Below are positions 1,387 through 15,595 of a stretch of DNA of 64,000 nucleotides, piece after piece; position 1 is the stretch's first letter; every line of letters starts with the position of its first letter. The stretch lies in contig CAZUPO010000002.1 in assembly GCA_964621595.1 (NCBI GenBank), positions 12,047 to 76,046 on the forward strand, given 5' to 3'. Below the pieces are notes generated by a model. The model was not told the DNA's origin, ran no database searches, and worked only from the letters and a program-made list of their open reading frames with translations. The translations under genes and the position numbers were made by a program. This DNA is from an uncultured Candidatus Saccharibacteria bacterium (GTDB lineage: Bacteria > Patescibacteriota > Minisyncoccia > Phycocordibacterales > UBA5272).

Positions 1387-2064
1387 TTATCCAACAACCA
1401 TCCCATCAGAGAGTTTGATGATGCGGTCGGCGAGTTTGCCATACTCTTCTTCGTGAGTCACCATGACAATGGTCAATCCTTCTTCTTTGTTTAATTTTTT
1501 AAAAATATCCATAACATTCCTTGAAGAGAAAGAATCGAGGTTGGCGGTTGGTTCGTCGGCAAATAAAATTTTTGGCTTGTGTGTTACAGCACGCGCAATC
1601 GACACTCGCTGCTGTTCTCCACCAGAGAGTTCTGATGGAAGATTATTTTGTCTGTGATCAAGATTAACACTTTTAAGAACTTCAAGCGCTCGAGTCTTGG
1701 CATGTTCCATAGTAATACCCTGCATAAGAAGAGGAACCATAATATTTTCAAGGGCGGTTAACTCCGGGAGCAACGAATAATCCTGGAAAACATATCCGAG
1801 TTCTGTAAGGCGGTAGTGTGTTTTCTCTTCATTGTTAAGGCGATCCACGATACGACCACTTAATTTAATAGAACCTGAGGTTGGAGTATCTAGAAGTGAC
1901 ATTTGATACATGAGTGTAGACTTACCAGCACCTGAACGTCCCATGATTGCAACAAATTCACCCTCTTCGACAGTAAGTGATATTCCCTTCAAAACCTGTG
2001 CGACCTCTGTGCCGTCGGTAAAACTTTTTGTTAACTCATGGACTTCGATAATGTGTTTTTTCAT
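1387..2064 (-). CDS. ABC transporter ATP-binding protein (MacB/LolD-like)
   Basis: Walker A GRSGAGKST, ABC signature LSGGEQQRVSIARA, Walker B ILFADEP. Confidence 0.9.
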   Translation of the reverse strand: MKKHIIEVHELTKSFTDGTEVAQVLKGISLTVEEGEFVAIMGRSGAGKSTLMYQMSLLDTPTSGSIKLSGRIVDRLNNEEKTHYRLTELGYVFQDYSLLPELTALENIMVPLLMQGITMEHAKTRALEVLKSVNLDHRQNNLPSELSGGEQQRVSIARAVTHKPKILFADEPTANLDSFSSRNVMDIFKKLNKEEGLTIVMVTHEEEYGKLADRIIKLSDGMVVG

Positions 2065-2073
2065 ATAGATGTT

Positions 2074-3402
2074 TTAATCATTTCTACCAAGAATTGCGTT
2101 TAGGGTGTTCTTGCTTACGATGAGTCGTGCTGGTAAATACCCTGCAAGAACAGACACGCCGAGCACCAAGATAAATTTAATGGCGACCGAGAGAGGTTCC
2201 GCAACGAGCACAATACTTGCAAAAGGAGTATCGATTGGGTATCGGTCAATAAGTGGTTTTAGGAATGCAAATATAAACACAAGAGCACAGAGTGAACCTA
2301 TCACAACATAAAATAATGCTTGGCAGATATAACTAAACTCAATAGCGAATTCAGTTACACCTATACCTTTCATAATCCCGATTTGTCTACGACGGGTAAG
2401 TGCATTGATGTAAATAATAATAAAGATGGTGATAAGAGCAACCACAACAGAGACAGAACCAAGGATTGTGCCTATAATATTAAAAAATAATTTTATGTTA
2501 ACCAAAAACTCTGGCGCCCCTTCTTCGGCAGTATTTATTTTTGCATACTGAGAAAATCCATTATTTACCAGTGGCATTTTTATAATGTACGGATCAACAC
2601 CTGGTTTTACGCGAATGGCTATCTCGGAAACGTCTCCATCACTTTTTCCTAGCATCTTTTTTAATTCACTATCGAGAATGTACGCACGTGATGCCACGAA
2701 GGCGACTTTTGAATCTATAATTCCTCGTACAATGAAGTCTTGTGTAACGGAAGAACTTTCATCAAGTGTTGTTTCTAATTCTCGACCAGGATTACCGGGG
2801 GTAAACGCAGCTTTCGCACGTGAAACCGTTACGCGAACTGTGCTGCCTGGCTTTACGTCTCGAAGAAGCGACACAAGATCCGCAACGCGAGAGTACTTTT
2901 GGAGATATGCGGAGCCAAGCACAATCCCGCGCGCGTCTCCTTCTTTCAACCACTCACCCTCAACAACAGCACCTGAGAGGCGTGTTGTTGACTCTTCGGA
3001 CACAGGGTCGACACCAGCAATTTGATTACTAACCACGTTGGCGTCTTCTTCGCTTCTTTTTTCCCACCAATTTGCTTCTATTTTTGCTCCGGCAACTATT
3101 CGTTTACTGAAACTCTCTACTTCTTGAAATGATGAGAGCAGACTCGTAATATCTCCGGTTCTCTCTATATAGTTCTTTTCATTTCTGTTGTTAATGAACA
3201 AATCCCCGGTCCACTGCTCTTTGAACGCACGAGATGATCCTTCGATAATACCAACAAGGAACCCACTCGTTGCAACCAGATTAAAAAAGGTAAGCATCAT
3301 GATAAACACGATGAGTCCTGTTGTCCATTTACTGGTACGTAACACCTGGCGAATGGCTAAGAAAAAGCCGAGTCTGATTGTATTTTTAGTTCGAGAGAAC
3401 AT
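2074..3402 (-). CDS. ABC transporter permease, FtsX/MacB family
   Basis: 442 aa. N-terminal TM, large periplasmic region, C-terminal cluster of TM helices. Directly upstream of the ATPase gene. Confidence 0.8.
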   Translation of the reverse strand: MFSRTKNTIRLGFFLAIRQVLRTSKWTTGLIVFIMMLTFFNLVATSGFLVGIIEGSSRAFKEQWTGDLFINNRNEKNYIERTGDITSLLSSFQEVESFSKRIVAGAKIEANWWEKRSEEDANVVSNQIAGVDPVSEESTTRLSGAVVEGEWLKEGDARGIVLGSAYLQKYSRVADLVSLLRDVKPGSTVRVTVSRAKAAFTPGNPGRELETTLDESSSVTQDFIVRGIIDSKVAFVASRAYILDSELKKMLGKSDGDVSEIAIRVKPGVDPYIIKMPLVNNGFSQYAKINTAEEGAPEFLVNIKLFFNIIGTILGSVSVVVALITIFIIIYINALTRRRQIGIMKGIGVTEFAIEFSYICQALFYVVIGSLCALVFIFAFLKPLIDRYPIDTPFASIVLVAEPLSVAIKFILVLGVSVLAGYLPARLIVSKNTLNAILGRND

Positions 3403-3472
3403 GCAAGATATACAGAGTATACCAGCAAGAAGCCTTACAACCCCCGTTCACTCATAACCACTGTGTGGAAAA

Positions 3473-5095
3473 TTAGTTTTCCTTTTGTGCAGCGCGAGTA
3501 CCAATCTCCGGCATAAGAAGAACGTCCCCTGGTTTGAGCCCTCCTGTTATTTCAATGAGACCATCTGCGCCCCTCATACCGAGTGATACGGATTGAATAA
3601 CTTCTCGTTTATCGTCTTGGAGAATAACAGATCCGAAAGTATCGTTTGTTGTTGTAACAAAACGAGCGGGAACAGCAATGGCGGAAACTTTTGACTGGGT
3701 CACAATGTTTACGTTTGCAGTCATGCCAGACTTGATACGATCATCGTGTTCCTTGAATGTTATGGTCACTTTATACATCGGAACCGTTCCTTCTGTGGTT
3801 GCTGTTGGAGAAATACGAGTAACGGTCGCTGGGAAAACTGAACCCTTTCCGTACGCATCAAGGGTTACCTCTACTTCGCTTCCCTGTATAACTTTTACTA
3901 TATCAATCTCAGGTACTTTTGCTTCTATTTCAAAAGCGTCTGCCCCAATCATGGTAATGACAGTTTTACCAAGTGTTGCTGTTTCTCCTTCTGTAGCAGA
4001 GACATCACCAATAATACCGTCAAACGGTGCTACTATTTTTGTTTTTGAAAATGCCTGGCGCGCTTGCATAAGATTCGCCTCGTATTGTGTAACGACGGCT
4101 GCTTGGGCTTTTATTTTGTATGGATCGGTACCAGCCTTTGTGAGATCAAGGTCTCGCGCTGCTTGCGTATACGTATTTTTCGCCGTTGTGAGGGAGGTTC
4201 GTTTGGTACTAAGATCAGAGAACAATGTTGTCATTGTCGTGCGAACTGTTGAAAGGGTTGTACGATACGTATCGAGTGAACTATTTTGCACACTACACGC
4301 AGTAAGAAGAAGATTAGAGATATTACCAATAAGGGCATTAGTTTGTACTGTGGCGTTGTAACCCTCCTCAATAACCGCATCAATTGAGTCACGGGTAGAG
4401 ATGGTAGTGATTGTTGAACTTTTTTTCTGATATGAAGCAAGGATGTTTTCTATATCTGTTCTTCCTTTTTCTATAACGGATTGAAGTGACTGATCACAAG
4501 AAGTAAACGAGAGTACATAGTGATCTCCCTGACTAATAAAAAGTCCCGCCAACTTATTCTTGAGCACATCTCCGGTTGTTGCTTCAACATTACGAATCAC
4601 GTCAGGAATAACAAGATAGGTTTGATCGAGTGAATCCTTTGCGTTTTGATATGTCTGCTCTTTGATGGCAATCTCTTCTTTGCGTGGTCCTTCTTTGAGT
4701 TGATCTAGCGTGATGTTCGCATTAGCAAGCACAGCCTCCGCTGAGAGAACTGCCGCCTCTTGGTCTCCTGAAGAAAGACTTGCTAAGGTTTGATTCTGAC
4801 GAACACGATCTCCTGTTTTTACAAAGACTTTTGAGATGGTTCCGGATGTCTGAAAGGAGAGGGAGGCATCTTTGGAAGACTGTACACTTCCAGAGACTTG
4901 AACATACTGCTTAATTGGGATCATGGAAACTGTATAACTTTCTTTTTCTTTCTTGTGTGTGCCCATATAGGCGAAAAATGCTACCGCAACGACGCACGCA
5001 AGGAGCGCAGCGTATCTCCCTGATTTATGAGAAATATGGTACAGGGCGCCGTGTAAAAAACGTACGTGCTTATGAGCACTTTTCAATGAATCCAT
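3473..5095 (-). CDS. HlyD/MacA-family membrane fusion (periplasmic adaptor) protein
   Basis: N-terminal TM anchor, long coiled-coil/beta-barrel-like body. First gene of an adaptor-permease-ATPase operon. Confidence 0.7.
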   Translation of the reverse strand: MDSLKSAHKHVRFLHGALYHISHKSGRYAALLACVVAVAFFAYMGTHKKEKESYTVSMIPIKQYVQVSGSVQSSKDASLSFQTSGTISKVFVKTGDRVRQNQTLASLSSGDQEAAVLSAEAVLANANITLDQLKEGPRKEEIAIKEQTYQNAKDSLDQTYLVIPDVIRNVEATTGDVLKNKLAGLFISQGDHYVLSFTSCDQSLQSVIEKGRTDIENILASYQKKSSTITTISTRDSIDAVIEEGYNATVQTNALIGNISNLLLTACSVQNSSLDTYRTTLSTVRTTMTTLFSDLSTKRTSLTTAKNTYTQAARDLDLTKAGTDPYKIKAQAAVVTQYEANLMQARQAFSKTKIVAPFDGIIGDVSATEGETATLGKTVITMIGADAFEIEAKVPEIDIVKVIQGSEVEVTLDAYGKGSVFPATVTRISPTATTEGTVPMYKVTITFKEHDDRIKSGMTANVNIVTQSKVSAIAVPARFVTTTNDTFGSVILQDDKREVIQSVSLGMRGADGLIEITGGLKPGDVLLMPEIGTRAAQKEN

Positions 5096-5173
5096 GCATG
5101 GAAGTGTATCACGTTTGAACTCTTAGCCCCTGAGGATAGTGACGCCTGTGATATACTTCATTGAAGAAATTTT

Positions 5174-5947
5174 ATGGCAAAATTCACATCACCTCTTATA
5201 GTCGGCAACTGGAAGACAACACCAGACACACTCGCAAGTGCAGTAAAGTTCGTAAAGCAACTTGAACGAAAGTGCCTAACACTTGGTAAAAAAGTTCCAA
5301 AGAAATGTTACTTTATTGCAACACCTGATATTTTTATACCCCATCTTGCACCACTTGCTAAACATGGCTACATTGGATCACAAAATGTTTCTGGCATAAC
5401 GCTCGGTCAAGAAACTGGGTTTACAATTCCTTCTCAGTTACTTTCCGGTGGTGCGGCCTTTACAATTATTGGTCACAGTGAGGTGCGAAAACGGGGTGAA
5501 CATACTGAAGACCGAGCAAAAAAACTTTGTCTTTCTTTGCAAGCAAAACTTCCGACAATACTCTGTGTTGGTGAAAAGGTGCGGGATAAGCATGGCAACT
5601 ACCTCCAAGAGTTAGAGGAAGATCTCAAACGATCTCTTGCGTTGGTAGAGCGAAGATTTTTTGAAAATCTTATTATTGCATATGAACCAATTTGGGCCAT
5701 TGGTGGGAAGGTGCCCGCAACACAAGCAGAATGTTTTGAGGTTGTCATCGCAATACGCCGAGCACTTGCCTCTCTTTCTGGAATTGATCATGCAAAAAAA
5801 ATAAAGATTCTCTACGGAGGAACCGTGAAAAAAGACAACGCTAGATCGTTCCTTGAAGAGGGCGGGGTTGATGGTTTGCTCATTGGTAGATCCTCCCAAG
5901 AAGTCTCATCCTTTGTGGAAATTATTAGTTCTTGTTACTCTTCTTAG
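5174..5947 (+). CDS. tpiA: Triosephosphate isomerase
   Basis: IVGNWK, IIGHSEVR, AYEPIWAIGG and YGGTV motifs. Confidence 0.9.
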   Translation: MAKFTSPLIVGNWKTTPDTLASAVKFVKQLERKCLTLGKKVPKKCYFIATPDIFIPHLAPLAKHGYIGSQNVSGITLGQETGFTIPSQLLSGGAAFTIIGHSEVRKRGEHTEDRAKKLCLSLQAKLPTILCVGEKVRDKHGNYLQELEEDLKRSLALVERRFFENLIIAYEPIWAIGGKVPATQAECFEVVIAIRRALASLSGIDHAKKIKILYGGTVKKDNARSFLEEGGVDGLLIGRSSQEVSSFVEIISSCYSS

Positions 5948-5987
5948 GTACTAGTCTTACATTTTTAATACGCACCACACCAAAACT

Positions 5988-7115
5988 ATGAATACAACCT
6001 GGCGATCACATCAAGCACCTGATCCAAAAGATCTGCACGACAAAAGGGTACTGATTCGACTTGATTGGAATATGCCAGTTACAAATGGTGAGATCACAGA
6101 TTTGAGCCGTTTCGATGTAACAGTTCCTTACTTAAAAGAACTTGCGTTTGCTGGCGCGAAGATTATAATCATGACCCACTTTGGGGAAAAGGGTGAGTCG
6201 CTGAAAGTTATTGCTGATCACGCCAAAAAAGAGTTGCCTTTCATTTCTTTCACCGAATCACAACAGTTCGACGAACTAGAAAAACTTTCTCGAGATCTTC
6301 CTCGTGGCGAAGCTCTTTTGCTTGATAATGTTCGGTTATTCAAGGGAGAAACAGACAACCTTCCTTCTCTTGCACAATCGTTTGCAAACTTAGGTGATGT
6401 GTTTATCAACAATGCATTTTCTGTATCGCACAGATCTCATGCAAGTGTTGAGGGTGTCGCAAGAAAAATGGCTTCATACTTTGGTCCTACGTTTATGAGA
6501 GAACTTGAAAACCTCACCAAGGCGCTTGCTCCTGTAAAACCCGCGATCCTTGTTGTCGGTGGAGCAAAAATTTCGACAAAATTAGATCTTATCAAACAGT
6601 ATCTTGATCAGGGTGTGCAAGTGTTCGTTGGTGGAGCTATGGTACATAATATTTGGAAAGAACGTGGTCTTGAGATTGGGAAAAGTTTATACGACCCTTC
6701 ATATAAACTCGCTGAGTCTTTCGTGCGACACCCCATGCTTCTAACCCCGGTGGATGTAGTGCTCGCGGATGGTAGTACGTGTGATTTTGATAAAATTCCA
6801 ACTGATGGTGTGGTGGTTGATTGTGGTAATAAAACAGTTGCCATGCTTGAACAAATCATGAAAGATGCAAAGACTGTTATAGCAAACGGTCCGCTTGGGC
6901 TTTATGAGAAGGGTTGGCTTCATGGGAGTGAACAGATCCTTACAAACTTATCTAATTTACCCGTTGATTCTTATATAGGCGGAGGAGATACCGTATCCGT
7001 TGCTCACTCTCTTCATCTTTTAAAAAAGTTTACATTTGTCTCTCTTGGTGGGGGGGCGATGCTTGATTTTCTTGCTTCTGGTACACTTCCTGGCATAGAT
7101 GCTGTCACAAAATAA
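5988..7115 (+). CDS. pgk: Phosphoglycerate kinase
   Basis: KRVLIRLDWNMP N-terminal motif, IIMTHFG and VVGGAKISTKLDLI motifs. About 375 aa. Confidence 0.9.
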   Translation: MNTTWRSHQAPDPKDLHDKRVLIRLDWNMPVTNGEITDLSRFDVTVPYLKELAFAGAKIIIMTHFGEKGESLKVIADHAKKELPFISFTESQQFDELEKLSRDLPRGEALLLDNVRLFKGETDNLPSLAQSFANLGDVFINNAFSVSHRSHASVEGVARKMASYFGPTFMRELENLTKALAPVKPAILVVGGAKISTKLDLIKQYLDQGVQVFVGGAMVHNIWKERGLEIGKSLYDPSYKLAESFVRHPMLLTPVDVVLADGSTCDFDKIPTDGVVVDCGNKTVAMLEQIMKDAKTVIANGPLGLYEKGWLHGSEQILTNLSNLPVDSYIGGGDTVSVAHSLHLLKKFTFVSLGGGAMLDFLASGTLPGIDAVTK

Positions 7116-7680
7116 AGACTCGTCGGTTATATCTTCTGTAGGGGATGCTGTTGCCCTTAAAAACCTCATTATACAAGCCAAATCTGGTAATAAAGAGGCG
7201 TTTGGTGGCGTCTACTCCATGCTCTACAAACCGCTCTATAGATATGCCTTCTCCCGATCACGGTCAAAGGAGTTGGCAGAAGACATTTCTCAGCAAACGT
7301 TCCTTCGTTTTTACGAAGCACTTCCCGGATATAAACACGAGACGTCTCCGCTTGCCTATCTCTTCACCATTGCAAAGCGACTCCTCATCAATCATGCAGA
7401 AAAGAAAACTTTTTCTTCGATTGATGAGTATCTGATTGAAGAACTTCCTGCGCAAGACGACATTCTCGAGGAAGAGCATGTGCGGATACTCGCGGAGAAC
7501 ATAAATGATCTTTTGCCAAAACTTCAACCCGATGAAGAAGAAGTAATCAGACTCTTTTTCTACGCAGAACTTTCGTACAAAGAGATAAGTGCTGTTATGG
7601 ATCGTGAAGAAGTGTATCTCCGCAAGATAAAGGAGCGTGCACTCAAGAAATTGCGCATACTATCTCGTCATCTTCTATGA
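7099..7680 (+). CDS. ECF-type RNA polymerase sigma-70 factor
   Basis: Sigma70 region 2 (YRYAFSRSRSKELAEDISQQTFLRFYEAL) and region 4 (EEVIRLFFYAELSYKEISAVMD). Overlaps the pgk 3' end by 17 nt. Confidence 0.8.
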   Translation: MLSQNKDSSVISSVGDAVALKNLIIQAKSGNKEAFGGVYSMLYKPLYRYAFSRSRSKELAEDISQQTFLRFYEALPGYKHETSPLAYLFTIAKRLLINHAEKKTFSSIDEYLIEELPAQDDILEEEHVRILAENINDLLPKLQPDEEEVIRLFFYAELSYKEISAVMDREEVYLRKIKERALKKLRILSRHLL

Positions 7681-8012
7681 CAAAAACCCCACATCAAAAA
7701 ACAATAGAGCAAGCGCTTCACATGTATAAGGAGACCGTATCGCCCTCCGAAAAAAATCTTCAAGTACTTTTGTCTCAAATACCAGAGCAACACAATCACG
7801 AAGTGCGGCGAGCGGTACGCTCCCCTTATATATGGGTTACTATTACTCAAGTGGTTACTGTTTTTGCCATTGTGCTTGTTTTCTTGCCTTCGTATACAAC
7901 ACCTTCATATGAACGAGATCCATTTTATACAATTGATACTCAAGTAGACTCTTTTGAACAAGGGTTAGACACCGAGGACGCAATTCGCAGTTTGGAAGAT
8001 GTTGCTTTATAA
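7677..8012 (+). CDS. Putative membrane-anchored anti-sigma factor
   Basis: ATGA overlap with the sigma factor stop. Single TM helix YIWVTITQVVTVFAIVLVFL. Inferred from position only. Confidence 0.4.
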   Translation: MTKTPHQKTIEQALHMYKETVSPSEKNLQVLLSQIPEQHNHEVRRAVRSPYIWVTITQVVTVFAIVLVFLPSYTTPSYERDPFYTIDTQVDSFEQGLDTEDAIRSLEDVAL

Positions 8013-9005: not shown

Positions 9006-9824
9006 TTAAGATTTTTTTACTAGTTCTTTCTTTTCAATCATTTCTCGTATTCTCTTGTTGGCATCAACCTTTACACCATGGTCTTTTATAAATGAATACA
9101 TCGCGAGTATCATTTTTTGAATATCACTGTGTCGTATTTCTATGACGAGCTGATCGTCGAGTGCCAAAAGATACAGCGAATCCTTAAAAGCAAATATTTG
9201 CCCTGAGTGGTTAAAATATTTCTTATCAGCATACACGGTGGAACTTGTTCTTCCTTCATAGTCCCTTGCCCACTCATCGCCGAGTGCATTAAAATGATCT
9301 TCTAACCACCCCATAGGAACGATAAGTTCTGTTATAAGAGAATTCTTTTTAATTATTCTGTTTGTTTCGTTAATTTCTTCTTGGGTAAATGTTGCAAGCC
9401 AACTCTCAAGAGGTGTCACGTCGGTGAGCGCAAGGAATCGTTCTTGCTTGTGGGCCATAAACATCGTAAAAAATATTTTTCTTACTGCCTCTTTTCCTCG
9501 ATGTACTACAATTGTGCTGTCTTCTACTCCAACAACCTCTTCACGCCCATCACTTAACTGTAAAAGTGACTTTTTTAATTCATAAAGTGTTTCTGCTAAT
9601 TCTTTACTGTTTGTAAAATGCCAAGACTTTTTTCCTTCAAGGATTCGTGAGTCCGCAATTCCTCTCTTTTTAAGTTTTTGTAAAATAACATACACGGCTG
9701 GTCTTGTAACCTTTGTATGTCTAGCAATGGAAAGGGGTGTAATGTGCCCCTTTTGTAGCGCCTCAAGTACTTTTTGTTCTTTGTTAGATAAACCTAGTAT
9801 GTGTAACTTTTTTTGTATTTCCAT
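9006..9824 (-). CDS. Putative HTH transcriptional regulator (TrmB/MarR-like N-terminus)
   Basis: N-terminal winged-helix-like segment LSNKEQKVLEALQKGHITPLSIARHTKVTRPAVYVILQKLKKRGI. Confidence 0.5.
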   Translation of the reverse strand: MEIQKKLHILGLSNKEQKVLEALQKGHITPLSIARHTKVTRPAVYVILQKLKKRGIADSRILEGKKSWHFTNSKELAETLYELKKSLLQLSDGREEVVGVEDSTIVVHRGKEAVRKIFFTMFMAHKQERFLALTDVTPLESWLATFTQEEINETNRIIKKNSLITELIVPMGWLEDHFNALGDEWARDYEGRTSSTVYADKKYFNHSGQIFAFKDSLYLLALDDQLVIEIRHSDIQKMILAMYSFIKDHGVKVDANKRIREMIEKKELVKKS

Positions 9825-10038
9825 GTCTAGAGTATACCTACTTTTACTAATTTTGTAAAGTTTTTATGACATATTATACAACTACTATGTCCTTTAAATA
9901 TAATGATATTTAGCATAATTTACTAAATTACAACTTTATTTTTTACTGTCAATATATTTTCTGGCATACTGCTTTCAGACAAGAAAAGTTCCTTGAATCT
10001 AATGGGTCGCGACCTTATAGCGAGAAAGGAGGTGACTT

Positions 10039-10167
10039 ATGATGAGCGCCGAGGTTGTGGGCTTCTCGGGTGCCAGTTGCGACAAGCAGCGACCGACACG
10101 TACCGAGAAGGTCTCCGCCCTCAAGGCGCCGTCGAAGGGTGCAACATCCCCTTCCAAAGGCACCTAA
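10039..10167 (+). CDS. Small ORF encoding 42-aa peptide MMSAEVVGFSGASCDKQRPTRTEKVSALKAPSKGATSPSKGT; candidate precursor or leader peptide
   Basis: Strong SD AAAGGAGGTGA at 10026-10036, ATG at 10039, TAA at 10165-10167. GC-rich. Different frame from the listed 9993..10274 ORF, which has no SD. Confidence 0.35.
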   Translation: MMSAEVVGFSGASCDKQRPTRTEKVSALKAPSKGATSPSKGT

Positions 10168-10201
10168 GGGTGAAGCCTTCCCTGCAAAGGCAGGCAGAGT
10201 T

Positions 10202-10302
10202 GGGGGGAAACTCTGTTAATAAAACCCCCAAGCAGTCAATCAACAACTTAGTGACATTACGGTTGTTGATTTAGCCCGGTGAGCGTACTTCACCGGTTTT
10301 CT
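10202..10302 (+). promoter_or_regulatory. Three consecutive hairpins between the peptide ORF and the radical SAM gene; the last resembles an intrinsic terminator or attenuator
   Basis: GGGGGG...CCCCC at 10203-10229. AATCAACAAC/GTTGTTGATT at 10238-10271. CCGGTGA-GCGTACT-TCACCGG plus TTTTCT at 10276-10302. Confidence 0.45.
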
Positions 10303-10373
10303 ATCGGGGATGTAATTGAATATTGCATCTCAGTAGAGAACCTTGAAATCAAAACTACATAGGGAGAAATTCC

Positions 10374-11288
10374 ATGATCGCCATGACTGCTGTGCTACCT
10401 GCGGTTGGTGGTTGCAATCTCAAGTGCGCGGGATGTTTTATTAATCAGCGCAAAGAGACCAATACCATCGACATGCGTACTGAGGACTACTTGAGATTTT
10501 TCAAGGAAACCCTCGCGATGCCGGAAGTCAACTCGTTTTCCATCCAGGGGCACGAGGCGCTTCTTCCCAGTGTGTACGAACTCACCAAGGAGTTGCTACA
10601 CATGAGCTGGGATGCCGGGCTGGTGACGTTGCTCGTCACCAATGGCGTGTACCTCAAAGAGGTCGCGCATGAGATTGTGCAAATCACTGACAGCATCATC
10701 GTGTCGGTAGATAGCCACAATCCGGCCCTGCATGACCTCTCGAGAGGAGAGCAGGGTGCCTGGCAAAAAACCATTGGCGGCATACAAGCCGTTCGTGATT
10801 GCTTTGAGGACGGAGTGGTTGGCGATGAGGTGTTCTCAAAATACATCTCTGTTGCATCCATTCTTTACCCGGGCAAGGTTGATCGCCTCCTTGGAATGCC
10901 GGAGCTTCTCAAGAAGCTTGGTGTTACCAACTGGGTGATAAGCCCGCTTATTTCCTTGAAAAGGGGAGGATACCACGACTCTGATTACATCCGCGTGAGG
11001 GAAAACCTCCTTCAACTTACCGAAATGGGTAAGACGCACGGTGTCAGGGTTGCTCTTTCCGACGAGTTTCGGAAACTAGAGCATGTGGAAGACCTTTTCA
11101 AGGCCTTGAGCGTCGATACGCTGGACAAAAATGCGACAATCGTAAGGTTGTCTCCTGATGCTTCAGTACGCGTCGGAAGAGAGATTCTTCAAGAAGAATC
11201 TTTTCGCAAATGGGACAGGAGAGAAGATCCTGTTGAGTTCCTCAAGGGGGCTCTTGCCGAATACAAGATTCGGTACTCCAATGTCTAG
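10374..11288 (+). CDS. Radical SAM enzyme (CxxxCxxC), no obvious SPASM domain
   Basis: GGCNLKCAGCF motif at residues about 12-21. SD AGGGAGA 7 nt upstream. GC-rich codon usage. Confidence 0.8.
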   Translation: MIAMTAVLPAVGGCNLKCAGCFINQRKETNTIDMRTEDYLRFFKETLAMPEVNSFSIQGHEALLPSVYELTKELLHMSWDAGLVTLLVTNGVYLKEVAHEIVQITDSIIVSVDSHNPALHDLSRGEQGAWQKTIGGIQAVRDCFEDGVVGDEVFSKYISVASILYPGKVDRLLGMPELLKKLGVTNWVISPLISLKRGGYHDSDYIRVRENLLQLTEMGKTHGVRVALSDEFRKLEHVEDLFKALSVDTLDKNATIVRLSPDASVRVGREILQEESFRKWDRREDPVEFLKGALAEYKIRYSNV

Positions 11289-11576
11289 AATGGGCATCGA
11301 CCGCAGACCTTGGTCTGACTGCGGTATATAAATTAACAAGGACATCTGGTGGCGGTGAAATAAACGACACACAGGTACGTGAAGAGGTATAAAAGACTAA
11401 AGCCCTTCACAAAGCTCCATTGGTAGACGCGCTTAGACTACCCGCTGTGAACCGAGCGTGATCGTGGTTATGGGGAATTGAGTGTCTACACCTCTTCCCC
11501 ATCTTTATAAAGTTTCTAAAGTAATTTAGGAATTTTTAGAGATATGTTCTTTAAAACCAACCTAAGGGAGATACAC

Positions 11577-11954
11577 ATGAGCACCATGATCAATGTCCTC
11601 GTTGTTGACGATGAAGCATACATGATGGAAGTGGTGGCCTGGATGGCCAAAAAGTCTGGGGTCAATATGAGCCGGGCTAGCACCAGGGTGGAGATGGAAA
11701 AATTCCTGGGAGAATCGTCCTTCGACGCCATCCTCATGGATGGCAACCTCTCCGGATGGGGTACGACGCATGAACCCAATTTCCCCGGAGCATGGGTGGT
11801 GCATGAGCTTCGTGGTCGTGGTATCACAACGAAGATCTTCATGTTTTCGTCCGATGAGGAGCGTCTTGCGGAAGGAATCGCGCTGGGTGCAAATGGGGTC
11901 TTCAGCAAAAGGAAGAGTGACTGGAAGGAACTCGTCCAACTCGTGAAGAGTTAG
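11577..11954 (+). CDS. Stand-alone response-regulator receiver (CheY-like REC) domain protein
   Basis: INVLVVDDE acidic pocket, ILMDGNL phospho-acceptor Asp, FMFSSDEE and FSKRK motifs. SD AAGGGAGA before ATG 11577. No output domain. Confidence 0.7.
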   Translation: MSTMINVLVVDDEAYMMEVVAWMAKKSGVNMSRASTRVEMEKFLGESSFDAILMDGNLSGWGTTHEPNFPGAWVVHELRGRGITTKIFMFSSDEERLAEGIALGANGVFSKRKSDWKELVQLVKS

Positions 11955-11961
11955 GCACGAA

Positions 11962-11989
11962 GGGGCAACGAAAGTTGCTCCTTTTTTAT
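11962..11989. terminator. Hairpin terminator between the convergent REC gene and xth
   Basis: GGGGCAAC-GAAA-GTTGCTCC then TTTTTTATTT. Confidence 0.55.
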
Positions 11990-12757
11990 TTATACTGTCA
12001 CCTCAAGTGACACGGGGCAATGATCACTACCGTACACATCGTTCAGAATTTCTGCTTTCATAACTTTTTGTTTACTCTTCTTATTCACAAAAAAGTAATC
12101 TATTCTCCATCCGATATTTCTCTCACGTGCGCGAGTCTTTTGATCCCACCAAGAATATTTCACCACCTCGGTGTGCAACTCTCTAAAAATATCAACGAAG
12201 CCCTCCTGAATCACACGATCAATCCATGACCTCTCTACTGGTAGAAAGCCAATACTGTTTTCGTTTTCTTTTGGTCGCGCAATATCAATTTCCTGGTGAG
12301 CAACGTTTAGGTCTCCACAGAAAATAACCGTCTCGTATTTTTTCTGAAGGGCGCTGACATGCTTAAGAAATTTATCGTAGTATCGTAGTTTAAATTGGAA
12401 ATGCTCTTCGTCTCGACCCCCGTTTGGCATGTAACACGTTACAAATGCAAATGTTTTGAAATGCACGGTAATCGCACGGCCCTCAATATCAAATGAATTG
12501 TCTCCAAGACCATACTGCACTTTTTCTGGTTTTATTTTTGTATATACCGCCGTCCCTGAATAACCCTTTCGTTCCTTGGCACTATCAAAGTATGAGTAGT
12601 ACCCTGGTGGATTTTTTATTTCCTCCGAAAGTTGATCTGGTGTTGATTTTGTTTCTTGAATACCTATGATGTCGGCGCCCATAGAAAATAACTCCTGGAG
12701 TCCTCCCTTTTTATGCATTGCCCGTATTCCATTTACATTCCAAGAAATACATTTCAT
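11990..12757 (-). CDS. xth: Exodeoxyribonuclease III (AP endonuclease, Xth family)
   Basis: MKCISWNVNGIRA...GADIIGIQETK. Start chosen at the MKCISWNVNG Met; the track ORF extends 40 codons further upstream. Confidence 0.85.
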   Translation of the reverse strand: MKCISWNVNGIRAMHKKGGLQELFSMGADIIGIQETKSTPDQLSEEIKNPPGYYSYFDSAKERKGYSGTAVYTKIKPEKVQYGLGDNSFDIEGRAITVHFKTFAFVTCYMPNGGRDEEHFQFKLRYYDKFLKHVSALQKKYETVIFCGDLNVAHQEIDIARPKENENSIGFLPVERSWIDRVIQEGFVDIFRELHTEVVKYSWWDQKTRARERNIGWRIDYFFVNKKSKQKVMKAEILNDVYGSDHCPVSLEVTV

Positions 12758-13540: not shown

Positions 13541-13570
13541 TATAAAAAAAGAAACTGAGAGGGGTCCTCT
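13541..13570 (-). terminator. Terminator for the small GC-rich ORF (minus strand)
   Basis: On the minus strand GAGAGG-ACC-CCTCTC followed by a 9-T run (A-run 13544-13553 on +). Confidence 0.45.
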
Positions 13571-13590
13571 CGGTCGTGCAACCGGTGCAC

Positions 13591-13836
13591 TCATTCACCC
13601 GCACCGGGGCGCCCGCACCTGCGATGAAAGCAGGGCTCTTCCTCCGGAGTCCCACACTCTTTCACGGTGCAGGACTTGCTTGGAGGAAAGAACGTGTCGC
13701 TGAGCGGGGGTTTCCAGCCATCGTTGAACGGAAGCGTCACCAGCCCCGCAGCGACCATCTGGCGCCCGGCAGAGCTGGCGACCGGATGACTCACGCTTGC
13801 CTCGTCAGCGGTCGGTGTATTGGCGTCTCGAGCCAT
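13591..13836 (-). CDS. Small GC-rich hypothetical protein (81 aa) with C-terminal four-Cys cluster
   Basis: SD AAAGGAGGA then ATG (rc of 13834-13836). MARDANTPTADEAS...CTVKECGTPEEEPCFHRRCGRPGAGE. Promoter-like TTGACT-N16-TACACT upstream on minus at about 13851-13885. Confidence 0.45.
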   Translation of the reverse strand: MARDANTPTADEASVSHPVASSAGRQMVAAGLVTLPFNDGWKPPLSDTFFPPSKSCTVKECGTPEEEPCFHRRCGRPGAGE

Positions 13837-14974: not shown

Positions 14975-15595
14975 CTACCGGCTGGAGAAGGGGAAGGCGA
15001 TGACCTTGATCGCCAACTCCTCGGCAATCGTCTCGCCGTCGCGATTTGCCACAGACGTCATCCACCGTTCGACATGCAGGAGGTTGTTCTCTCGGTGCAC
15101 CGAGACCGTCGTCTCGACATTACCGTTTAGACGCATCGCGATGGTCTCGAATCCGATGAGACCCTTCATGATGTTACCGTCGTCGTCGATGAGGACGATG
15201 CGGCACGTCTTCAGGTACCGCGGCAACATGCGCACGACCACGTCACCGGTGGTGCAACTGCCGGGGTTCTTGAGGGCGGTGATCGGTCGAGGCAACCTGC
15301 GCTCCTCGATCAGATCGCTACCTCGATAGACCGTAATCGAACGCGATCCGCCTCGCATGAGGTGCGTGCTGCGCTCTTCCTTGCCGGTCTCGAGCGACCG
15401 CTCCGAGATGATGAACCCCTCGGATGCGGCGGTCACGACCGCCATGGTGTCGTAGGACACCGGCAGGCGAACCACCTGGCCAGAGGTGCGCTCGACGCGA
15501 TAACCTGTGACCTGGTAGAGGTACTTCCCTTCGTCACCCTGGGCAAACGCGCCGAAGGAAACGAAGGAAAGGACAAACAAGATGAGGGTGTGCAT
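14975..15595 (-). CDS. Secreted hypothetical protein (206 aa), GC-rich cassette 4
   Basis: Signal peptide MHTLILFVLSFVSFGAFAQG. SD AAGGAGG 6 nt before ATG. GC-rich codons. Confidence 0.55.
   Translation of the reverse strand: MHTLILFVLSFVSFGAFAQGDEGKYLYQVTGYRVERTSGQVVRLPVSYDTMAVVTAASEGFIISERSLETGKEERSTHLMRGGSRSITVYRGSDLIEERRLPRPITALKNPGSCTTGDVVVRMLPRYLKTCRIVLIDDDGNIMKGLIGFETIAMRLNGNVETTVSVHRENNLLHVERWMTSVANRDGETIAEELAIKVIAFPFSSR

Follow-up and report, generated by a model that had tools for sequence, protein, structure and literature searches.

A predicted regulator-peptide-radical SAM cassette with a structured intercistronic RNA in Patescibacteria

The DNA considered here, referred to as the window, is a stretch of 64,000 nucleotides from an uncultured Candidatus Saccharibacteria bacterium (contig CAZUPO010000002.1, positions 12,047 to 76,046; GenBank assembly GCA_964621595.1), and all coordinates count from its first letter. 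Its positions 9006 to 11288 hold a TrmB-family regulator gene, a divergently oriented gene for a 42-residue peptide, a structured intercistronic RNA and a gene for a radical S-adenosylmethionine (rSAM) enzyme. Judged by comparison with about 20 related loci of the candidate phyla radiation (CPR, or Patescibacteria), these genes form a conserved cassette with three members, a TrmB-family regulator, a small cationic peptide and an rSAM enzyme of ~300 residues, and the peptide is probably the target of the enzyme. A literature search found no description of such a regulator-peptide-rSAM cassette. The genes and the signals in front of them, including the Shine-Dalgarno (SD) sequence of the peptide gene, are as follows.

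9006-9824, minus strand: TrmB-family regulator gene, divergently transcribed, encoding a winged helix-turn-helix (HTH), a coiled coil and a TrmB-like C-terminal domain
9939-9971, plus strand: conserved promoter-like block TTTTTTACTGTCAA-N12-CTGGCATACT in the intergenic region between regulator and peptide genes
9942-9947 and 9965-9970, plus strand: -35-like TTTACT and -10-like CATACT within that block
10004-10024, plus strand: short stem-loop directly 5' of the peptide SD, read by eye
10023-10035, plus strand: extended SD AGAAAGGAGGTGA, whose 13 nt match the canonical anti-SD complement (16S 3' end) perfectly
10039-10167, plus strand: peptide gene, 42 residues, MMSAEVVGFSGASCDKQRPTRTEKVSALKAPSKGATSPSKGT, proposed substrate of the rSAM enzyme; alternative start at 10042
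10374-11288, plus strand: rSAM gene, 304 residues, with a single [4Fe-4S] motif C14-x3-C18-x2-C21

Relatives of the rSAM enzyme were retrieved with a word-index search, which returned 14 sequences at 47-100% identity, and with an exhaustive profile search, which returned 99 cluster representatives at E<=1e-30. About 100 loci of such relatives (numbered with the prefix L) were collected, and a phmmer survey of all their open reading frames (ORFs) covered roughly 95 of them. The order regulator (minus strand), small ORF (plus) and rSAM gene (plus) is found in the window, L001/L010, L004/L021, L011, L007/L014 and L022, and again in L085, L059, L096/L097, L100, L103 and L104. In the same survey, every CPR-clade locus whose upstream sequence is present has a divergent TrmB homolog there. 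Loci that belong to named genome records come from metagenome-assembled genomes of Patescibacteria, namely Paceibacterota, Parcubacteria and Saccharibacteria. An earlier first-pass annotation of this DNA had listed the 42-residue ORF, its SD, the hairpins behind it, a CxxxCxxC rSAM gene, a receiver-domain (REC) gene and a terminal terminator, and each lies at or near where it had been placed; the annotation had passed over the divergent regulator gene as a conserved partner and the covarying pseudoknot within the hairpin region.

The regulator has an N-terminal winged HTH, a coiled coil and a C-terminal effector domain, the features that define the TrmB family. Its HTH matches the TrmB Pfam model PF01978 (29.2 bits against a cut-off of 25.6), and its AlphaFold2 (AF2) model has a mean confidence (pLDDT) of 87.5. 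The best Foldseek matches over the full length are TrmBL2 (5bpd) and TrmB (3qph), and the TrmB sugar-binding domain (2f5t) is also matched. The full architecture of archaeal TrmB and TrmBL2 is therefore matched by fold and by the HTH family, whereas the window gene is bacterial and its C-terminal domain has diverged too far for a Pfam match. The regulator family is far commoner than the rSAM family, with at least 124 close relatives, only a subset of which is paired with the cassette. The window, L010, L021, L011 and L096/L097 keep the promoter-like block at 9939-9971, and contig L109 has it at its end; the block scores under the threshold of a consensus promoter scan. We regard it as a putative promoter that may also carry an operator. 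L109 holds the closest TrmB homolog (65% identity), and the contig stops exactly inside the conserved block (L109:1-45); there, an assembly breakpoint or variation between strains may lie on the peptide-rSAM side.

An SD-bearing ORF is kept at the peptide position in 12 related loci. Gene callers and a separate ORF scan place an ORF of 30-53 residues between the regulator and rSAM genes in the window, L010, L104, L011, L021, L014, L022, L085, L096/97, L100 and L103, and the ORF of L059 is longer, at 97 residues. Over five ortholog pairs, substitutions at codon positions 1, 2 and 3 number 53, 48 and 85, and between L096 and L097 the peptide ORF is 92.8% identical while the rSAM gene is 87.7% identical. 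By these substitution patterns the ORF behaves as a coding gene, more than would be expected by chance. Four other contigs of the source organism, checked for population-level dN/dS, are 100% identical. Peptide genes have a mean SD complementarity of 9.4 nt (maximum 14), compared with 5.5 nt for rSAM genes. The stem-loop before the peptide SD recurs in relatives, again as read by eye, with different sequences in its arms (TCGC/GCGA, CAGTAC/GTACTG, CACT/AGTG, CCTCAA/TTGAGG and CCCAA/TTGGG).

The peptides share an N-proximal motif of three hydrophobic residues followed by [A/S][G/N/R], which reads VGFSG at residues 7-11 in the window and takes forms such as VVLAN, VVFAN, YGFSN and LILAR elsewhere; the peptides of L014, L085, L096, L104 and L059 contain two or three copies of it. 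Of 21 cassette peptides, 12 have the motif within their first 10 residues, compared with 1.8% of 824 background ORFs. The cassette peptides all have net charges between +2 and +9, and they are strongly basic and Ala/Lys-rich or amphipathic, as in SFGSFLRRAFRFARTL. The first-pass annotation had drawn attention to the single cysteine of the window peptide in its SCDKQ context. That residue is not conserved, several orthologous peptides have no cysteine at all, and it was rejected as the modification site; the peptides share no conserved Cys, Trp or Lys target.

The stretch between the peptide stop codon and the rSAM start is occupied by a succession of RNA elements.

10181-10194, plus strand: hairpin H1, CCTGC-AAAG-GCAGG, 13 nt past the peptide stop codon
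10195-10229, plus strand: H-type pseudoknot with stems S1 (10195-10199/10211-10215) and S2 (10202-10206/10225-10229)
10216-10224, plus strand: loop 3 of the pseudoknot, A-rich, TTAATAAAA
10237-10271, plus strand: hairpin CAATCAACAAC...GTTGTTGATT from the minimum free energy (MFE) fold, specific to the window lineage and with no counterpart in the homologous leader alignment
10276-10305 (stem 10276-10296), plus strand: terminator-like hairpin CCGGTGA-GCGTAC-TCACCGG followed by TTTTCTATC, from a consensus scan
10297-10340, plus strand: long conserved hairpin H4, base TCTATC.../...GTAGAGA with variable interior, from RNAalifold and the MFE fold
10341-10350, plus strand: conserved and single-stranded, CCTTGAAATC here and GTTCTTTGAAA in homologs; repeats 9990-9999 of the 5' leader in direct orientation

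Hairpin H1 has compensatory changes in 4 of its 5 pairs, every cell of its alignment is paired, and RNAalifold predicts it independently. Downstream of it, a helix between loop and tail together with covariation identifies an H-type pseudoknot, whose S2 stem covaries across seven loci as GGGGG/CCCCC, GTTGC/GCAAC, GAGAG/CTCTC, GCGG/CCGC, TCACC/GGTGA and GGAAG/CTTCC. Taking H1, S1 and S2 together in a hand-registered six-sequence alignment, all 89 cells pair and compensatory changes occur in 9 of the 15 pairs, compared with 44-58% pairing in slid controls. When the pseudoknot alignment was shuffled, the observed value was reached in 0 of 500 shuffles for four of five measures and in 1 of 500 for the fifth. 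MAFFT and covariance-model alignments put L010 and L021 out of register; L021, which was checked by script, fits the pseudoknot, and tail-shuffling gives a per-locus chance of a perfect 5-mer of 0.04-0.34. Among 40 loci, a covariance model of the pseudoknot matches the seven training loci only. The module is confined to the window's subclade and is absent from L014, L096/L097, L100, L103 and L059, which keep the ORF and a hairpin.

A GC-rich hairpin or terminator between the peptide and rSAM genes is found in every locus with an upstream ORF, with canonical U-tracts in L100 and L103 and weaker ones in other loci. The three hairpins of the first-pass annotation are thus present, though their number was too low: further helices exist, among them H4, whose 5' arm is the U-tract of the terminator-like hairpin. 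H4 has 17 pairs, at least 8 of them compensatory, in an unedited MAFFT alignment analysed with RNAalifold, and the same alignment recovers H1 and S1. Homologs possess an extra long hairpin abutting the rSAM SD that has been lost in the window. A direct repeat, AGTTCCTTGAATC at 9987-9999 and AACCTTGAAATC at 10338-10350, marks the start of the peptide leader and the position just 5' of the rSAM SD; homologs hold GTTCTTTG at both places, twice in tandem in L096/L097. The leader repeat may be an operator or a processing site.

The intercistronic structured RNA is previously undescribed. Rfam 15 gives no match at gathering score anywhere in the window, including 10170-10373, the region that the first-pass annotation had thought could be a riboswitch, and only chance-level matches arise in 9850-12050, in 10165-10310 and in the L022 leader, with searches of just 146 nt and 231 nt included. 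An alternative account of the locus would nevertheless make 10170-10373 a riboswitch, with the pseudoknot as aptamer and 10276-10305 as expression platform, or a translation-coupled attenuator of the rSAM gene, and the ORF a regulatory leader peptide. Such a role is not mutually exclusive with peptide modification, and it draws on a covarying hairpin next to an H-type pseudoknot with an A-rich loop 3 and preQ1-I-type topology, on the terminator-like hairpin that comes next, and on the start of H1 ~13 nt past the stop codon in 5 of 7 loci (by inspection), approximately the leading edge of a terminating ribosome. The likeness to preQ1-I H-type riboswitches extends to the 5-bp stem, the pairing of loop with 3' tail, the A-rich linker UUAAUAAAA and the position in an mRNA leader 5' of a terminator-like hairpin. 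In contrast to preQ1-I, the P2 helix is 4-5 bp of variable sequence rather than a conserved CUA, the loop sequences have drifted in L010 and L021, H1 stacks as a further hairpin on the 5' side, the element sits between cistrons behind an ORF, and the downstream gene is not a queuosine gene. With no Rfam match in the 146-nt and 231-nt searches, preQ1-I was rejected.

The pattern of conservation bears on riboswitches more generally. In L010 and L021 the loops, where a binding pocket would lie, diverge while the stems stay, the opposite of what a ligand pocket would predict, and this favours a structural role in transcript end formation or processing, mRNA stability or stoichiometry; ligand sensing seems less likely than such a role. 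The pseudoknot is missing from several loci that keep ORF and hairpin, and no alternative antiterminator pairing was found. Ribosome-stalling leader peptides usually conserve their C-terminal part, whereas the conserved part of this peptide is its N-terminus. We therefore consider a riboswitch or attenuator improbable as the explanation of the locus, a view reinforced by the sister clade described below, whose downstream tandem copies cannot be leaders.

In that sister clade (L012, L013, L025 and L087/L023), the rSAM enzymes are 40-41% identical to that of the window. No upstream peptide ORF is present in these loci, and the spacer between regulator and rSAM genes is just 143-158 nt in L012, L013 and L025. 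Two or three tandem peptide genes of 28-29 residues instead follow directly after the rSAM gene, with SDs of 6-14 nt; their products include MGALYAGGLARKRSWKQFLRRAFRFFKAQ, MVAGYAGRL... and MTVVVSGTLKPK..., and their starts (MGALYAG, MVAGYAG and MTVVVSG) resemble the shared motif. Because adjacency persists despite an inverted order and multiplied copies, and because strong and weak SDs contrast, a protein-level relationship between substrate and enzyme or product and enzyme is suggested. As far as gene order can tell, the inversion, kept adjacency and copy multiplication argue for precursor-maturase pairs and do not fit a cis-acting leader ORF. A precursor gene linked to its enzyme across genomes, the generic hallmark of ribosomally synthesised peptides with post-translational modifications (RiPPs), is seen in 12 upstream-type and 4-5 downstream-type loci.

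The enzyme belongs to the rSAM superfamily by its CxxxCxxC motif, by a beta/alpha core like that of rSAM structures in its AF2 model (pLDDT 82.8) and by its match to Pfam Radical_SAM PF04055 (44.8 bits against a cut-off of 29.5). In an alignment of 14 sequences, C14, C18 and C21 are the only invariant cysteines and no other is near-invariant; the C-terminal 75 residues of the window enzyme contain none. Foldseek matches comprise BlsE, SkfB, DesII, viperin, SuiB, TigE, EpeE and anSME at TM-scores of about 0.5-0.64, and a profile search of the PDB returned only BlsE, SkfB and anSME. Its sequence neighbours mostly belong to the SPASM/twitch clade, home of most peptide maturases, and by these comparisons the enzyme is a single-cluster offshoot of an SPASM/twitch-like clade.

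No established family accommodates it: the best NCBIfam model scores 54 bits against a cut-off of 380, and none comes near its cut-off. QueE was rejected, being absent from the best 25 of 46 NCBIfam matches and from the PDB profile matches. The PflA/NrdG activases were rejected as well, since they are not among the NCBIfam matches listed and no glycyl radical enzyme gene lies nearby; the pyruvate formate-lyase activating enzyme is just the 45th fold match (TM-score 0.48). MoaA and other housekeeping rSAM enzymes fell away with NCBIfam models far off their cut-offs and no such PDB profile match. Viperin was discarded on an NCBIfam viperin_w_prok score of 40.8 bits (cut-off 180) over residues 13-120 only, and a prokaryotic viperin (pVip) defence system on a PADLOC pVip score of 44 bits over residues 13-121 only; no relatives were found in viral contigs. 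An epimerase mechanism was likewise rejected, as rSAM epimerases need a conserved cysteine as H-atom donor (PMC8326336) and none is present outside the SAM cluster. The first-pass annotation had held that its proposal would fall if the enzyme grouped with a housekeeping family, if the ORF were not conserved or expressed, or if the hairpin region matched a known riboswitch; the enzyme is not of QueE, PflA/NrdG or other housekeeping type, the ORF is conserved and Rfam offers no match, so none of the three came about.

That annotation had seen in precursor peptide, partial terminator and rSAM maturase the classic RiPP layout. The order of peptide, terminator and rSAM gene does hold across CPR genomes, but the enzyme lacks the SPASM/twitch cysteines and the RiPP recognition element (RRE) that would complete the picture. 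Known rSAM/SPASM RiPP systems (AlbA of sbo-alb, SkfA/SkfB, streptide SuiA/SuiB and the ranthipeptides) likewise have a small precursor gene beside the rSAM gene and a stem-loop or partial terminator between the two. The rSAM core of the window is closest to the SPASM clade in sequence, SkfB and SuiB are among its top fold matches, and the sister clade has tandem precursor copies. In contrast to these systems, the window enzyme has only 304 residues, with neither an SPASM/twitch cysteine motif nor a PqqD-like RRE; the peptide motif is N-terminal and the tail basic, which turns the usual leader-core order around; no Cys, Trp or Lys target is conserved in the peptide; and neither a protease nor an exporter belongs to the cassette. 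In Bacillus subtilis, the EpeX/EpeE (YydF/YydG) system pairs a peptide of ~49 residues with an RRE-less rSAM enzyme of ~320 residues that targets hydrophobic residues. EpeE is among the fold matches of the window enzyme, but at a TM-score of only ~0.5, and it has more than one [4Fe-4S] cluster (PDB entry descriptions speak of 'clusters'), whereas the conserved cysteines of the window enzyme are those of the SAM cluster only.

Taken together, we give about an even chance to the locus being a new RiPP-like cassette of CPR bacteria, composed of a TrmB regulator, an abundant cationic precursor, a structured RNA and a minimal single-cluster rSAM maturase. Several observations weigh against this interpretation. 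Most rSAM peptide maturases have an auxiliary Fe-S cluster and an RRE; here, auxiliary-cluster cysteines of the SPASM/twitch kind are absent by Pfam and by the 14-sequence alignment, and the RRE is absent in that no PqqD/RRE Pfam match was obtained, the rSAM motif starts at residue 14 and the model has no extra N-terminal domain. The best structural and profile match is BlsE, and the other single-cluster neighbours are DesII and viperin; the substrates of all three are nucleotide-linked small molecules. Soil-clade rSAM relatives (31-36% identity) have no such peptide and are paired instead with an uncharacterised protein of ~490 residues. The cassette has neither protease nor dedicated exporter. 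Conservation of the peptide sequence is weak, its motif was defined after the sequences were seen and is absent or degenerate in L021, L011, L100 and L103, and homology between upstream-type and downstream-type peptides is statistically not established. The pseudoknot alignment was registered by hand and padded with N, and it has only 6-7 sequences, two of them close relatives.

The enzymatic part of these observations keeps alive the alternative that the rSAM enzyme acts on a small molecule, such as a nucleotide or sugar-nucleotide, and that the small ORF is an unrelated basic protein or a leader peptide in its operon. BlsE, then DesII and viperin, are the best PDB matches (TM-scores 0.59-0.64) and are similar in size to the window enzyme; they have no auxiliary cluster, and the enzyme is single-cluster like them. 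Weak N-terminal pVip matches in PADLOC and NCBIfam, the rSAM_BlsE model as top NCBIfam match of the L012 homolog, a split P-loop/PRK-like kinase gene downstream in L001 and the missing peptide partner of the soil clade point the same way. Yet the family scores are far under their cut-offs (viperin 41 against 180 bits, BlsE 59 against 400), the viperin matches cover only the generic N-terminal cluster-binding core, and those to BlsE end at about residue 200. It is peptide genes, not nucleotide-metabolism genes, that are conserved beside the window rSAM: no conserved nucleotide- or sugar-metabolism neighbour of the CPR-clade rSAM was found in the loci compared, and no viral relatives were found. 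Action on a small molecule would also leave unexplained why cationic peptide genes with extreme SDs adjoin the rSAM gene in two different layouts, one of them with tandem copies. We regard this alternative as unlikely, though the likeliest of those considered. Behind the rSAM gene of L001, a Paceibacterota relative, come a 67-residue ORF and then two fragments in different frames, one P-loop and one PRK/uridine-kinase-like (L001:5917-6785, plus strand), which look like a frameshifted nucleoside kinase gene.

Another alternative leaves the peptide unmodified, either as a partner of the enzyme (a subunit, activator or chaperone) or as a cationic antimicrobial or nucleic-acid-binding peptide that acts independently and shares only its regulation with the rSAM gene. 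The strongly basic, Ala/Lys-rich or amphipathic composition of the peptides, the lack of an RRE in the enzyme and a MacAB-type exporter beside the cassette in L096/L097 would suit it. The extreme SD of the peptide gene, the weak SD of the rSAM gene and the tandem paralogs, however, point to an excess of peptide and hence to a substrate or product rather than a subunit, and in the window the exporter lies 5 kb away as part of a conserved ABC-TIM-PGK neighbourhood. We accordingly assign this possibility a low probability.

If the peptide is, as we infer, the substrate, the cassette might operate as follows. The TrmB-family regulator would control a divergent promoter near 9940-9970, and the 5' stem-loop and very strong SD would allow the peptide to be translated at a high level. 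With H1, the pseudoknot, the terminator-like hairpin and H4, the RNA would form the end of a short and stable mRNA for the peptide, or be processed into one. Transcription or translation would then reach the weak-SD rSAM gene only in part, and this putative role of the RNA would provide much substrate and little enzyme. The rSAM enzyme would modify the peptide through a 5'-deoxyadenosyl radical, with substrate, site and chemistry all predicted. The most likely site would be the shared N-terminal motif, VGFSG in the window, while the basic C-terminal tail could serve recognition or the activity of the product. A bolder proposal, which we offer tentatively and hold somewhat more doubtful than otherwise, is that the locus represents an unrecognised CPR class of RiPPs, in which a minimal single-cluster rSAM enzyme lacking both an SPASM/twitch domain and an RRE modifies an N-terminal motif of small cationic peptides, a new intercistronic pseudoknot RNA that possibly senses a signal sets the ratio of peptide to enzyme, and the peptides are possible episymbiotic effectors.

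Downstream of the rSAM gene lies the receiver-domain gene for which the first-pass annotation had suggested a possible regulatory role.

11577-11954, plus strand: stand-alone CheY-like REC gene, 125 residues, between the rSAM gene and xth
11959-11984, no strand assigned: bidirectional terminator of 11 pairs, then TTTATTTATA, with T-runs on both sides, serving REC (plus) and xth (minus)

The protein is a receiver domain by its Pfam Response_reg match (44 bits against a cut-off of 30.2) and by residues D11/D12, D55, S90 and K111, which align with D12/D13, D57, T87 and K109 of CheY. Phospho-regulation of a peptide-modification module by this orphan REC could appeal to its co-orientation 288 nt 3' of the rSAM gene, its intact phospho-acceptor residue set and a GC content (0.53) like that of the cassette. 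The phmmer survey, however, found a REC homolog in no other locus, and a search of 5.8 billion proteins found no relatives other than the protein itself. Two hairpins, one of them terminator-like, stand in the spacer between the rSAM and REC genes. The xth (Exo_endo_phos) gene found behind REC in the window comes straight after the rSAM gene in L007/L014, which marks REC as a lineage-specific insertion rather than a partner of the rSAM enzyme. Its adjacency is a coincidence, and the lack of co-occurrence effectively refutes the regulatory role, leaving it a very slim chance. The spacer (11289-11576, 288 nt) contains CCGCAG...CTGCGG at 11301-11324 and GGGGAA...TTCCCC at 11472-11500 followed by ATCTTTAT, with ~140 nt of no obvious feature between them; it may be a scar of the REC insertion.

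Composition and neighbourhood give a consistent account of descent. GC content is 0.51 from the peptide through the rSAM gene and 0.44 in the window as a whole, so the raised GC reported by the first-pass annotation is real; a recent, horizontally acquired island was rejected, because the peptide-rSAM pair is 2-10 points over background in 10 of 11 loci and raised GC is typical of the pair. A block of MacAB-like ABC, TIM and PGK genes at 1387-7115 of the window abuts the cassette in L096/L097. These neighbours and xth are common to relatives, which indicates that the locus has largely been inherited vertically. The MacAB-type tripartite exporter of the block consists of an ABC ATPase, an FtsX permease and an HlyD-like adaptor (1387-5095, minus strand, in the window; 2270-5900 in L096/L097) and stands beside TIM and PGK, 5 kb from the cassette in the window.

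The soil-clade partner of ~490 residues is encoded on the same strand 5' of the rSAM gene (L066:1287-2759, plus strand), with equivalents in ~30 soil-metagenome loci. It has no Pfam match and a conserved C-terminus, …LSIDGMKI..AHA.EKLRHHGFLLLRLDEF.KF, and some soil-clade loci have Opp-like ABC transporter genes downstream; rSAM and ~490-residue protein constitute a different, likewise undescribed partnership. Elsewhere in the window, an extracytoplasmic function (ECF)-type sigma factor gene overlaps the start of a 111-residue ORF with a hydrophobic segment (7099-8012, plus strand), whose product could be an anti-sigma factor, and two small secreted-looking proteins follow it immediately upstream of the TrmB gene. 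An 81-residue ORF at 13594-13836 (minus strand; GC ~0.58) has a strong SD, AAAAGGAGGATGGTATG, and four cysteines near its C-terminus, …SKSCTVKECGTPEEEPCFHRRCG…, and is followed by a terminator-like hairpin and T-run at ~13553-13575. It has no Pfam or Rfam match, and its region is a further GC-rich islet in a 44% GC genome. A 206-residue ORF at 14975-15595 (minus strand) has a GC content of 0.60-0.62, far over the genome average, and a signal-peptide-like N-terminus, MHTLILFVLSFVSFGAFAQG.

CPR bacteria have tiny genomes with few recognised natural-product genes. The analysis removes a misleading pairing with a receiver domain and recasts the raised GC as intrinsic to the gene pair. At ~2 kb, the cassette is compact and easily cloned, making it a possible source of radical peptide chemistry that does without an auxiliary cluster or RRE, and it offers a covarying RNA pseudoknot between two cistrons for study. 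The modified cationic peptide, in turn, might be a mediator of CPR-host interactions.

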